Shown: positions 7,226 through 16,637 of the stretch, in pieces | How the letters are laid out: each line of letters opens with the position of its first letter | Position numbering within the stretch: position 1 is the first letter of the stretch | DNA from: a virus | Lineage: Duplodnaviria > Heunggongvirae > Uroviricota > Caudoviricetes | Virus record (IMG/VR): IMGVR_UViG_2627853844_000002 | Reading direction: 5' to 3' (one strand) | DNA: 19,945 bases | Notes under the pieces: model-generated | Seen by the model: the letters and a program-made list of their open reading frames with translations, nothing else | What the model was told of the DNA's origin: nothing | Database searches by the model: none | Position numbers and translations under genes: made by a program

Positions 7226-7256
7226 AAAACCCGCTGATGAGCGGGTTTTGTGCTTT
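7226..7256 (+). terminator. tR'-like intrinsic terminator (target of Q antitermination)
   Basis: ACCCGCT-GATG-AGCGGGT hairpin (7229-7246) followed by TTTTGTGCTTT, about 50 nt downstream of the PR'-like -10. Confidence 0.7.
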
Positions 7257-7754: not shown

Positions 7755-8054
7755 AAAAATTCCTTAATACTGATAACTTGGCGCACTATACACACGTTCC
7801 TGAAGAAAGCTATAGTTTTTTGATGGGGTTGAAGATGGCTGGATGTCTAAAATAAACATTGCTTCATATGTTCAACTATGCGTTAATGATTGCGTCGGTT
7901 TGAAGAACAGACGATATACGAAGTAGTTTACTAAAGCAGTTCTCATTTCAGGTGTTATTCACTTATTCCTTCTTTGAGTCTCTCCAATTAAGTACGAAGT
8001 CGTTTCTGTTATGCAAACCATTTATGCCGAAAGGCTCAAGTTAAGGAATGTAGA

Positions 8055-8270
8055 ATGTCAAATAAAATGACTGGTTTAGTAAAATGGTTTAACGCTGATA
8101 AAGGTTTCGGCTTTATTTCTCCTGTTGATGGTAGTAAAGATGTGTTTGTGCATTTTTCTGCGATTCAGAATGATAATTATCGAACCTTATTTGAAGGTCA
8201 AAAGGTTACCTTCTCTATAGAGAGTGGTGCTAAAGGTCCTGCAGCAGCAAATGTCATCATTACTGATTAA
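8055..8270 (+). CDS. cspB: Cold-shock protein CspB (71 aa)
   Basis: ORF translation [71 protein letters not shown]. Confidence 0.95.
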
Positions 8271-8381
8271 AATTCATCGCTCGTCTGTATACGATAACGA
8301 AGAAGGCTGATGCCTGAGTAGAGATACGGACAGAGTAGTGAATATTGGATCTCTTTAATAAAAAGTAAGGAGGTCCAATAC

Positions 8382-8417
8382 ATGAAACAATGGCTAGCAT
8401 ATTTGGCAAAATCTTAA
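8382..8417 (+). CDS. Candidate 11-codon mini-ORF (MKQWLAYLAKS) with a near-consensus Shine-Dalgarno
   Basis: TAAGGAGGT at 8366-8374, 8-nt spacer, ATG at 8382, stop TAA at 8415-8417; no other evidence of translation. Confidence 0.3.
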   Translation: MKQWLAYLAKS

Positions 8418-8551
8418 TCAGGAAAAGTATGCTAACCATTGTGGTGAAGTGCAGGTTTGCTGCATGAATAGTTTTACAGCAGAAGCTAACTGCTGGCATG
8501 GCAAAACAAAGTGCGTAAGTGGATGACTCCCACAAAAAGCACCACAATCTC

Positions 8552-8576
8552 AAACCCGCTCAGGCGGGTTTTTTAT
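8552..8576 (+). terminator. Rho-independent (possibly bidirectional) terminator between the cspB region and a convergent small ORF
   Basis: CCCGC-TCAG-GCGGG hairpin (8555-8568) followed by TTTTTT ATTAT. Confidence 0.7.
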
Positions 8577-8633
8577 TATCTGCTTTAAATATATTATTAA
8601 AATATAGAAAATACTTGTTACTAATAAAATCAA

Positions 8634-8804
8634 TCAGGCTACAGCTTTAAGATTTGTCTGGAATACTTTGTTGCAATGAGGGCAGATCAAAAGGGCACCT
8701 TTTTGTACTCTTGAAAAACTGTGTTCTGACTCTTGGGTGCAGTTTGGGCAGGAACATTTAACGAGATAATTACGGCGTGATTTTGAGTTTTTACGTTCTG
8801 ACAT
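8634..8804 (-). CDS. Small zinc-ribbon protein (56 aa; C-x-C-x2-C ... C-x2-C); possibly the small protein annotated as ynfU in recent K-12 annotations
   Basis: Internal Met of ORF 8634..8855: MSERKNSKSRRNYLVKCSCPNCTQESEHSFSRVQKGALLICPHCNKVFQTNLKAVA; AGGA SD about 8 nt upstream of the ATG. Confidence 0.5.
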   Translation of the reverse strand: MSERKNSKSRRNYLVKCSCPNCTQESEHSFSRVQKGALLICPHCNKVFQTNLKAVA

Positions 8805-10579: not shown

Positions 10580-10941
10580 GGTAATATTAAATCGGAACAT
10601 TTACATCGCGGAATGTAAAATTTAAATAAAAAGGACTCTTCCATGAGCCAAAATTCCTGAAATCTTAAGGGTAAGATAAAAGGTCTTAATCAGAATGACA
10701 CGTTTTATTAATAAATAAAGCTATTCTTTCATTGCTGTGTTTTTCTTTACAAAAGTAATCCTTGCTATGGGTGGTTAATCATGCGTTAATGGTGTTCTGG
10801 TTTGTTACAAATTTATCTGAAGCAGTCATTGTTATAATTTTATTATTTGTACCTCTTGAGATTTCCTTGTTGGTTTTTCTCTCTGATATTTTTTTTCGGA
10901 CCATTCTGCCCAAGGGCTAATTTCTTCAAAAGGTAATAATT

Positions 10942-11154
10942 ATGTCTAACAAAATGACTGGTTTAGTGAAATGGTTTAACCCTGAAAAAGGTTTTGGTTT
11001 CATCACGCCGAAAGATGGCAGCAAAGATGTGTTTGTCCATTTCTCAGCAATTCAGAGCAACGATTTCAAAACATTAACTGAGAATCAGGAAGTTGAATTT
11101 GGTATTGAGAACGGACCTAAAGGTCCTGCCGCTGTTCATGTAGTGGCGCTTTGA
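10942..11154 (+). CDS. cspI: Cold-shock protein CspI (70 aa)
   Basis: ORF translation [70 protein letters not shown]. Confidence 0.95.
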
Positions 11155-11353
11155 GGTAGACAATATTACAAACCATATTCACTTTAGATGCCCGTGTTGT
11201 CATGGTTCCCAGTATAGAACATCATCTTTTGATGTTTCTGACATGAATCCTTTCGGGGCAAAATGTATCTTTTGTAAATCAATGATGATTACATTTGATA
11301 ATATTTCACAATACTTAAATGCCAGCCGTCTGTCGTTGGATTTAAAAAAGTGA
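11144..11353 (+). pseudogene. Zinc-ribbon-like reading frame (paralog of the 8634..8804 ORF) lacking any canonical in-frame start before its first Cys cluster; only the C-terminal 36 codons (ATG 11243) are conventionally translatable
   Basis: Frame +1 relative to cspI reads ...FRCPCCHGSQYRTSSFDVSDMNPFGAKCIFCKSMMITFDNISQYLNASRLSLDLKK*; an ATG at 11188 is out of frame by one nucleotide (ATG CCC GTG ... stops after 9 codons). Confidence 0.35.
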
Positions 11354-12598: not shown

Positions 12599-12644
12599 CT
12601 GATGAATCCCCTAATGATTTTGGTAAAAATCATTAAGTTAAGGT

Positions 12645-12713
12645 GGATACACATCTTGTCATATGATCAAATGGTTTCGCGAAAAATCAATAATCAGACA
12701 ACAAGATGTGCGA
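12645..12713 (-). ncRNA. IS10 antisense RNA-OUT (from pOUT; represses transposase translation); coordinates approximate
   Basis: Placed from established IS10 organisation (RNA-OUT covering roughly IS10 nt 47-115, overlapping the transposase start at nt 108); not derived independently from the sequence. Confidence 0.5.
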
Positions 12714-16062: not shown

Positions 16063-16637
16063 TGGCATTCAGAATGAGTGAACAACCACGGACCATAAAA
16101 ATTTATAATCTGCTGGCCGGAACTAATGAATTTATTGGTGAAGGTGATGCATATATTCCGCCTCATACAGGTCTGCCAGCAAACAGTACCGATATTGCAC
16201 CGCCAGATATTCCGGCTGGCTTCGTGGCTGTTTTCAACAGTGATGAGTCATCGTGGCATCTCGTTGAAGATCATCGGGGTAAAACGGTTTATGACGTGGC
16301 TTCCGGCGACGCGTTATTTATTTCTGAACTCGGTCCGTTACCGGAAAATGTTACCTGGTTATCGCCGGAAGGGGAGTTTCAGAAGTGGAACGGCACAGCC
16401 TGGGTGAAGGATACGGAAGCAGAAAAACTGTTCCGGATCCGGGAGGCGGAAGAAACAAAAAACAACCTGATGCAGGTAGCCAGTGAGCATATTGCGCCGC
16501 TTCAGGATGCTGCAGATCTGGAAATTGCAACGGAGGAAGAAATCTCGTTGCTGGAAGCATGGAAAAAGTATCGGGTATTGCTGAACCGTGTTGATACGTC
16601 AACTGCACAGGATATTGAATGGCCAGCACTGCCGTAG
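16062..16637 (+). CDS. tfaQ: Tail-fibre assembly protein (191 aa)
   Basis: ORF translation [78 protein letters not shown]...; start overlaps the stf stop. Confidence 0.85.

Follow-up and report, generated by a model that had tools for sequence, protein, structure and literature searches.

The cspB 3' region of the Qin prophage

The DNA analysed here, a stretch of 19,945 nucleotides from the virus record IMGVR_UViG_2627853844_000002 (the window), is the Qin cryptic prophage of Escherichia coli K-12, and our subject is the 3' untranslated region (3' UTR) of its cold-shock gene cspB. The window runs along the minus strand of the genome, and a coordinate in NC_000913.3 equals 1649609 minus the window coordinate; positions and strands below are those of the window unless a genome position is given. 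The 370 bases around the region are 100% identical to MG1655-derived genomes, and the stretch was found in 1,640 of 5,426 complete E. coli genomes. The gene order is quuQ (plus strand), ynfS and cspF (minus), cspB (plus), the region under study, ynfU (minus), and then essQ, ydfR, rrrQ and rzpQ (plus). The cspB coding sequence (CDS; 8055..8270, plus strand) is 100% identical to K-12 b1557 and matches PF00313 (E = 1e-31); it is the gene whose 3' UTR contains the features described here. The convergent zinc-ribbon gene ynfU (8634..8804, minus strand) is annotated in NC_000913.3 and matches PF23499. What lies between them is a conserved, uncatalogued RNA element of phage-borne cspB cassettes.

An initial annotation had singled out a Shine-Dalgarno sequence (SD) followed by a short open reading frame (ORF), two inverted repeats and an intrinsic terminator, and had proposed a leader peptide or small protein or, alternatively, a structured RNA derived from the cspB 3' UTR. 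Indeed, the 9-mer TAAGGAGGT occupies 8366-8374 and is the sole exact copy in the window; the ATG (8382-8384) sits 7 nt after the 9-mer and 8 nt after its GGAGG core. The ORF of eleven codons (8382-8417, plus strand) reads ATG AAA CAA TGG CTA GCA TAT TTG GCA AAA TCT TAA and would encode MKQWLAYLAKS. The first inverted repeat, GTGCAG (8449-8454) and CTGCAT (8460-8465), is real. The second is also present, with CAGCAG (8477-8482) and CTGCTG (8490-8495) enclosing aagctaa (8483-8489), one base off the coordinates it had been given. A G+C-rich hairpin with a T-run forms the expected intrinsic terminator at 8552-8577, and a terminator consensus scan confirmed that no terminator-like site lies between cspB and the ORF. 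The stretch from 8386 to this terminator lies in the 3' UTR, with no other gene between.

A four-way junction downstream of cspB

Comparison of homologous copies placed both inverted repeats, as helices P2 and P3, in one covariation-supported four-way junction, which is preceded by a further hairpin, P0. RNAalifold, run on 13 representatives, returned this arrangement with 9 covarying pairs. P0 (8392..8437, plus strand) pairs GGCUAGCAUA (8392-8401) with UAUGCUAACC (8428-8437); 86% of cells are paired, and 4 pairs have changes on both sides. The junction itself (8438..8548, plus strand; covariation over 29 distinct sequences) is closed by P1 (8438-8446/8540-8548), which holds P2 (8449-8454/8460-8465, the first inverted repeat), P3 (8477-8482/8490-8495, the second) and the junction helix P4 (8519-8522/8530-8533). 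The P3 loop, AAGCUAA (8483-8489), is invariant, as is a 12-nt joining strand of the junction, AAAGUGCGUAAG (8508-8519). A pseudoknot that would pair J2/3 (8470-8473) with the P4 loop (8525-8528) is tentative, with 83% of cells paired and weak covariation.

In the alignment of the 29 distinct sequences (A4), 93.5% of cells pair and 13 of the 36 pairs have changed on both sides. Compensatory changes in P1 include exchanges between G-C and A-U, U-A and A-U, and A-U and G-C. None of 500 shuffles of A4 reached these values, and sliding the 3' partners by 1-3 columns lowered pairing to 24-55%. The K-12 sequence on its own has the consensus fold as its minimum free energy (MFE) structure, with an unpaired probability of 0.99 for the P3 loop. 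Aligned to K-12, the copies in the phages Cyrano and PHB10 carry compensatory changes in every stem. A scan anchored on P2 alone found both AAGCUAA and AAAGUGCGUAAG in every match. The stretch 8386-8579 folds at -62 kcal/mol (z = -4.1). The z-scores of the folds, here and further upstream, together with helix covariation across lineages, indicate that these features exceed chance. The element is a structured 3' UTR or non-coding RNA (ncRNA) motif, and its helices carry compensatory substitutions across independent lineages. The alternative offered by the initial annotation, a structured RNA from the cspB 3' UTR, was thus essentially right but understated, as the supposed separate stem-loops belong to a single fold.

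By nhmmer the window contains a single copy of the junction (8439-8546); no second copy was found in the window, for instance behind cspI. Rfam 15 at gathering scores gave no match overlapping 8287-8640, and at E <= 10 only sub-threshold matches appeared, mostly on the terminator (Trp_leader, 21.7 bits against a threshold of 41, 8493-8577; isrK, 18.3 against 50). The PHB10 copy likewise had no relevant Rfam match. ARAGORN found no tRNA or tmRNA in the window, and the element does not fit a tRNA: its junction strands measure about 11 and 23 nt, and its loop AAGCUAA has no U33. The full-text literature that was searched contains no description of a cspB 3' UTR RNA. One copy looks degenerate, judged by its sequence: in Raoultella lignicola (L168) an 8-nt unit, CCTGAAAG, is present in about seven tandem repeats in J2/3, and P2 and P4 are also changed.

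The terminator (8552..8577), which the consensus scan located and which folds at -12.8 kcal/mol, has a stem of 8 bp, 5 of them G-C, formed by AAACCCGC (8552-8559) and GCGGGTTT (8564-8571) around a 4-nt loop; UUUUUUAUU follows, with the T-run TTT-A-TT. It lies between the convergent genes cspB (plus) and ynfU (minus), is shared by both and is bidirectional. Its use is shown on the ynfU side: the part of a published Term-seq table that was used here (PMC7815308) lists a 3' end on the ynfU strand at genome position 1641060 (+), equal to window 8549, and this end indicates that the hairpin terminates ynfU. The hairpin behind quuQ/cspF (7226-7253, AAAACCCGCTCATCAGCGGGTTTT) has nearly the same stem as this terminator (8552-8571, AAACCCGCTCAGGCGGGTTT), and a Term-seq 3' end at genome position 1642356 (-), window 7253, falls on it.

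The Shine-Dalgarno sequence lies in a hairpin arm next to a strong RNA 3' end

The initial annotation had overlooked that TAAGGAGGT belongs to the 3' arm of a 14-bp inverted repeat. Its two arms, AUUGGAUCUCUUUA (8344-8357) and UAAGGAGGUCCAAU (8366-8379), enclose a loop at 8358-8365 and were predicted by folding to form a plus-strand hairpin, H(-1) (8344..8379). H(-1) alone has a folding energy of -17.1 kcal/mol, and across the ensemble computed for the complete cspB 3' UTR the SD TAAGGAGGT has an unpaired probability of 0.006. What had been read as a Shine-Dalgarno sequence is the 3' arm of an RNA hairpin. Two G.U pairs occur in the stem, and on the opposite strand they become A.C mismatches. 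Since the G.U pairs would mismatch there, H(-1) is a structure of the plus-strand RNA. Natural variation among about 100 Qin-type copies follows the pairing: three of the four stem variants preserve it (two C>U changes opposite G and one G>A change opposite U), and only an A>C change breaks a pair. The G>A change, seen in 7 of 103 copies, turns GGAGG into GGAGA; it weakens the SD and replaces a wobble by a Watson-Crick pair. Between lineages the position of H(-1) is kept, while its sequence is not. No U-tract follows the stem.

Published Term-seq data (Adams et al. 2021; PMC7815308, supplementary file 1) place an RNA 3' end directly behind this hairpin. In the part of that file used here, an "orphan" 3' end on the genomic minus strand, the strand of cspB, is listed in all three conditions. 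It lies at 1641226 in LB at an optical density (OD) of 0.4 (604,404 reads), and at 1641224 in the other two conditions, LB at OD 2.0 and M63 (1,233,565 and 2,464,295 reads). Placed by the printed flanking sequence, 1641226 is window 8383, the U of the AUG, and 1641224 is window 8385. Minus-strand values in the same part of the table run from about 23,000 upwards, with 976,436 for the small RNA (sRNA) sroA. The reads at 8383/8385 are comparable to those of sroA on the same strand, which marks the end as a strong one. All of these data are from 37 °C; cold shock and prophage induction lie outside the sampled conditions.

The mapped ends lie 4-6 nt past the H(-1) stem, in the single-stranded A-rich linker ACAUGAAACAAU (8380..8391, plus strand), a putative processing or trimming site. 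A 3' end near such a stem without a U-tract is the signature of a processed or trimmed end guarded by the stem, and the pattern is that left when 3'-to-5' exonucleases stall. With the dominant 3' end at the AUG, most of the RNA that carries the SD at 37 °C lacks the ORF. The initial annotation had predicted a discrete transcript ending at about 8575, and had named the lack of such an end at the terminator as one of two observations that would count against it. Term-seq called no such end: within 1641000-1641099, the entries used here list no cspB-strand 3' end in any of the three conditions.

Further 3' ends map upstream. The same source lists one in the cspB 5' UTR (1641634, window 7975, 80 nt before the ORF) and a bicyclomycin-sensitive site inside the start of the cspB ORF (1641537, window 8072), and from these two sites we infer that cspB is attenuated by Rho at 37 °C. 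Scanning and inspection of 8000-8380 found no convincing promoter-like site on the plus strand that could account for the RNA ending at 8383.

A second covarying domain between cspB and H(-1)

The first structured domain of the 3' UTR, D1 (8272..8343, plus strand), was recognized by its MFE fold and by covariation. It consists of an outer stem (8283-8291/8323-8331) and an inner hairpin (8304-8307/8312-8315), with the conserved loop strands CGAUAACGAAGA and CCUGAGUAGA. In an alignment of 15 sequences (A5), 86% of cells pair and 10 of 13 pairs have changed on both sides (7 of 8 in the outer stem); slid controls gave 17-43% pairing. D1 is present in most lineages and absent from the PHB10 type. 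Together with H(-1) it forms a very stable 115-nt unit of two domains (8271-8385, -43.2 kcal/mol, z = -6.9); the abundant RNA with its 3' end at 8383 may be this very unit.

We noticed that a loop sequence of D1, ACGATAACGAAGAAG (8291-8305), closely resembles ACGATATACGAAGTAG in the cspB 5' UTR (7911-7926), just past the cold-box region. Going by this resemblance, a binding motif may be common to both UTRs, or they may interact with each other.

The element travels with cspB between phages and prophages

A distant BLAST search of phage genomes found 8425-8578 in common with two unrelated phages, Cyrano (108 kb) and PHB10 (57 kb). In Cyrano the element lies between hicB and dnaE, and the csp gene there is unannotated. 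A pattern scan detected the element in more than 120 IMG/VR viral contigs, to which the P2-anchored scan added 47. The 29 genome stretches that carry it come from about 10 named genera, plus metagenome-assembled genomes and a mis-binned contig; the genera include Escherichia, Shigella, Enterobacter, Kosakonia, Kluyvera, Phytobacter, Raoultella, Leclercia, Atlantibacter, Pseudescherichia and Superficieibacter.

Among the 161 copies with enough upstream sequence, all bar one lie 130-230 nt behind a CspB-like ORF (63-100% protein identity), and the sole exception is a copy disrupted by IS3. The usual cassette is cspF <- -> cspB - element <- ynfU: a divergent CspF-like gene is usually found upstream and a convergent YnfU-like gene often downstream. 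ynfU co-occurs with the element in most lineages, the Cyrano, L106 and L094 types excepted. In phages and prophages from many Enterobacteriaceae, the cassettes occupy positions typical of phage or prophage cargo (morons), for example between Q and the lysis genes, beside integrase and umuC, or inside phages of about 100 kb.

Nucleotide identity to K-12 is 68-82% for the ORF of the csp gene, 46-56% for the UTR from the stop codon to P1, and 74-82% for the junction, and in 20 of 28 pairs the junction is at least as conserved as the csp ORF. Between PHB10-type and Kluyvera/Phytobacter copies the junction is about 90% and the ORF about 72% identical. The junction is thus conserved like or above the csp ORF, which indicates that the RNA module is selected at least as strongly as the protein; the stretch with the eleven-codon ORF is not.

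Some copies are interrupted. An insertion of about 770 bp splits cspB in L022, and cspF is disrupted in many Qin-type copies (L009/L013-type). In L081 an apparent natural modular 5' border at P1 turned out, on reading of the flank, to be an IS3-like insertion at the P0/P1 border.

A processed RNA module as the most probable reading

These results point to an RNA feature within a structured cspB 3' UTR of about 300 nt rather than to a peptide gene. We put the probability that it is a processed 3' UTR module at roughly 0.6. The primary cspB transcript would run through to the shared terminator and be cut, with RNase E as the most likely nuclease, in the A-rich linker (8380-8391) that separates H(-1) from P0; trimming back to H(-1) would be the alternative to cleavage. 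The upstream product would be the cspB mRNA, or a stable fragment of D1 and H(-1), capped by a nuclease-resistant hairpin. The downstream product would be an RNA of about 190 nt that comprises P0, the junction and the terminator, with this folded module as the part under selection. The likeliest role of its invariant unpaired nucleotides would be to present a surface that binds a protein or small ligand, linked to how the accompanying Csp protein works or is controlled. For the element itself, the most likely role is that of an RNA module linked to Csp function, acting either in cis or on its own.

Several observations weigh against this reading. The covariation comes from about six independent lineages of one bacterial family, and both invariant motifs served as search anchors, though the P2-anchored scan recovered them independently. 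The released junction RNA was not seen, and Term-seq at 37 °C has no cspB-strand 3' end where the terminator lies: transcripts either seldom get that far or leave a downstream fragment that is short-lived under these conditions. For the RNA ending at 8383/8385 the mapped end is the 3' one, and the nuclease is suggested by context only. Rho terminates early in cspB at 37 °C, yet an abundant RNA ends at 8383, and this end may simply reflect a very stable decay intermediate of D1 and H(-1). No partner, ligand or target was identified, and a search of the window for a local target, the complement CTTACGCACTTT of the invariant strand, gave no more matches than chance would. PHB10-type and Enterobacter-type copies also lack a canonical G+C-rich terminator after P1. 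Loci of this kind (e.g. L003, L044, L094, L157) have a T-rich tract directly after P1 or no obvious terminator, and in the PHB10- and Enterobacter-type lineages the 3' end of the element may form differently.

The main rival concerns the 3'-end step. The ends at 8383/8385 could be trimmed products of Rho-dependent or other hairpin-associated termination just past H(-1), instead of cleavage products. The cspB mRNA would then normally finish at H(-1), and the junction would be transcribed only when termination is suppressed, for instance by Csp antitermination in the cold or in Q-modified late transcription following prophage induction, and would act as a conditional module or read-through sensor. 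This is possible, though clearly the less probable account. It fits the strong 3' end at H(-1) and the lack of one at the much better intrinsic terminator 190 nt downstream, and Rho does act on cspB at 37 °C. The Qin-type cassette moreover has the Q antiterminator gene on one side and the lysis genes on the other, and CspA-family proteins are reportedly transcription antiterminators. However, H(-1) lacks a U-tract, and the short A-rich linker resembles an endonuclease site more than a C-rich rut site. In PHB10, Cyrano and Kosakonia the element is found at positions other than Q-to-lysis, and the next gene is convergent or unrelated in every lineage, so that read-through would have nothing consistent to regulate.

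Somewhat less likely still is that the junction (8438-8548) represents a new class of RNA with a complex fold in enterobacterial phages, a ligand or protein aptamer or a catalytic RNA rather than a simple stability element. Such an RNA would act jointly with the cold-shock protein of the phage; during infection or cold stress it might, for instance, titrate or load CspB or a host RNase or chaperone, an idea that we regard as equally doubtful. The architecture is suggestive: one closing stem encloses three hairpins with invariant junction strands and an invariant loop, much as in riboswitch aptamers and in tRNA-like or Y-RNA-like modules, and a loop-to-junction tertiary pairing of the kind found in multi-helix junction RNAs is possible. 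A closing stem, invariant strands and tertiary pairing are typical of ligand- or protein-binding RNAs. Unlike riboswitch aptamers and tRNA-like modules, the element has no Rfam, tRNA or tmRNA match and is not upstream of any gene; in all copies it lies downstream of csp, and the genes that follow are convergent or variable, a placement that does not suit a riboswitch.

We consider it improbable that the junction and terminator act as a base-pairing 3' UTR sRNA dependent on Hfq or ProQ, with AAGCUAA, AAAGUGCGUAAG or both as seed against host mRNAs. Such an sRNA would share the intrinsic terminator and U-tail of its parental mRNA and have a processing site upstream, as is the case here, and it could expose the single strands that are invariant across genera, notably the unpaired P3 loop. 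Prophage-encoded sRNAs are known, and DicF lies in the same window. In contrast, the known seed-type sRNAs need far less structure than a four-way junction of 110 nt and about 30 conserved pairs. No stable 3' end was called at the terminator at 37 °C, and the PHB10- and Enterobacter-type copies lack the canonical terminator hairpin that is the usual handle for Hfq and ProQ. The RNA-interactome papers searched do not mention the locus in their full text.

The eleven-codon ORF

Translation from the strong SD, which would yield a small protein or a leader peptide controlling the downstream hairpins and terminator, is very improbable. Its appeal lies in the exact TAAGGAGGT 7 nt before an ATG and in the retention of both in nearly all closely related E. 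coli copies. Reading of the ORF (8382..8417), whose codons 4-7 form the P0 5' arm, would also unwind that arm, and there is the weak sub-threshold Trp_leader match at 8493-8577. Against this, the SD is sequestered in the 14-bp stem and the dominant RNA 3' end falls on the AUG itself. The ORF is confined to a near-identical E. coli lineage: an ATG and SD at the homologous place are absent from the Cyrano-, L106-, PHB10- and Enterobacter/Kluyvera/Kosakonia-type copies. The L048/L171 lineage (E. coli, Escherichia sp.) lacks about 82 nt that correspond to the SD, the ORF and P0, and retains the flanking domains.

Within the Qin type the peptide alleles are MKQWLAYLAKS (38 copies), MKQWPAYLAIT (32), MKQWPAYLAKS (26), MKQWPAYLVIT (2), MKQWPAYLAKP (2) and MKQ-stop (1). 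All six substitutions are non-synonymous, and one of them is the W>stop change; the G>A variant of 7 copies weakens the SD and improves the hairpin. The CUA (Leu) codon of K-12, CCA elsewhere, restores the U-A pair of P0 opposite a lineage-specific A in UGCUAACC, and the change is thus compensatory for the RNA and not selected for the peptide. We judge the ORF not to be a conserved coding feature; in one lineage it probably arose incidentally from the hairpin arm and P0.

The placement does not suit a leader peptide either. The ORF lies 3' of cspB, no co-directional gene follows before the convergent ynfU, and a bidirectional terminator stands between. The ORF is free of any run of regulatory codons. 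Between it and the terminator hairpin (8552-8571) lie P0 and the junction, which fold independently, and no conserved alternative pairing with the terminator was seen. The curated record NC_000913.3 has no gene between cspB and ynfU, despite listing the ribosome-profiling-derived small proteins ynfQ, ynfR, ynfS and ynfU nearby. The leader peptide or small protein favoured at first is not supported. A relationship of the ORF to ynfQ/ynfR (behind cspI), as a truncated relative, was also considered and rejected; there is no similarity, and ynfQ is a zinc-ribbon protein. In a diverged copy from E. coli ECGI0523 (L179) the sequence upstream of P0 is replaced, and a different ORF of 13 codons, MFKQETKASTAKT, shares the terminal TAA, with part of it in a different frame from the K-12 ORF.

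Finally, a DNA-level feature (e.g. a recombination site), a coding feature (the 97-codon minus-strand ORF at 8260..8553) or recent shared ancestry alone is barely credible as the cause of the conserved block: phage records do annotate hypothetical CDSs there and most E. coli copies are at least 95% identical, but paired columns exchange G-C/A-U and U-A/C-G, the G.U pairs work only in plus-strand RNA, the minus-strand ORF has no Pfam match and breaks up into differing frames in L048, Cyrano and L106, and between lineages the junction is 68-91% identical against 42-67% for the flanking UTR, the closely related Kosakonia-Phytobacter pair (UTR 79%) being the sole exception. The hypothetical CDSs in question, in the GenBank records of PHB10 (L003 2450-2575, plus strand, on P0-P2) and PhiR42_1 (L004 2990-3265, minus strand, antisense to the element as a whole), probably result from gene callers misreading structured RNA.

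Relation to known RNAs

The processed module favoured here has its closest parallels among 3' UTR-derived sRNAs. CpxQ, SroC, SdhX and NarS are released by RNase E and share the terminator of their mRNA. Like RNAs of the CpxQ/SroC type, the element lies in the 3' UTR of a stress gene, ends at the mRNA's own terminator, has a single-stranded processing or 3'-end site upstream and is better conserved than the surrounding UTR. It greatly exceeds them in size and in the extent of its structure, comprising a four-way junction, P0 and possibly a pseudoknot. A canonical terminator is missing from some lineages, and its downstream product was not detected by Term-seq at 37 °C.

H(-1) resembles protective 3'-terminal stem-loops in being a stable hairpin of a csp-family mRNA with an RNA 3' end 4-6 nt downstream, and ProQ is said to bind the 3' ends of csp-family mRNAs such as cspE. 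It differs in being internal to the primary transcript and not a terminator, and in that its position rather than its sequence is conserved. With the cspA thermoregulator (RF01766) the element shares the gene, a cold-shock mRNA whose RNA structure matters for expression. That model covers the 5' UTR and ORF (7894-8286) and stops before the 3' UTR domains proper, so that D1 and the other domains lie outside it, and the cspI copy of the thermoregulator has no junction. The succession of a short ORF, hairpins and a terminator, and the weak sub-threshold Rfam match, recall trpL-type attenuators (RF00513). In contrast to these, the ORF is downstream of its gene, precedes no regulated gene, has no regulatory codons, is unconserved and has its SD sequestered. 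Prophage ncRNAs beside moron genes have precedents: IpeX, at the 3' side of nmpC in DLP12, is a moron-associated ncRNA of E. coli K-12. Like DicF (Qin) and IpeX, the element is non-coding and lies in a cryptic lambdoid prophage beside a moron gene, but it has no sequence or structural similarity to either.

K-12 is the most thoroughly annotated bacterium, yet about 300 nt behind cspB hold two covarying RNA domains without an Rfam family. The junction is conserved like its protein and moves with cspB between unrelated phages and prophages, which argues for selection on the RNA itself. If the RNA controls the fate of the cspB mRNA or stands alone, it would add a 3' UTR layer to cold-shock regulation, so far studied almost entirely via the 5' UTR, and phage moron cassettes would gain an RNA component. 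The locus also illustrates that a textbook-perfect Shine-Dalgarno sequence with its ATG can arise as a by-product of a hairpin arm.

Further observations in the window

Other Rfam matches at gathering score are DicF (175-226), the cspA thermoregulator of cspI (10796-11181), RNA-OUT (12644-12713) and IS009 (16405-16603). Outside the element, position 8607 is G in the window and A in NC_000913.3 (TAGAAAAT and TAAAAAAT, respectively); the window is an exact match to a subset of MG1655-derived assemblies, e.g. CP010444.

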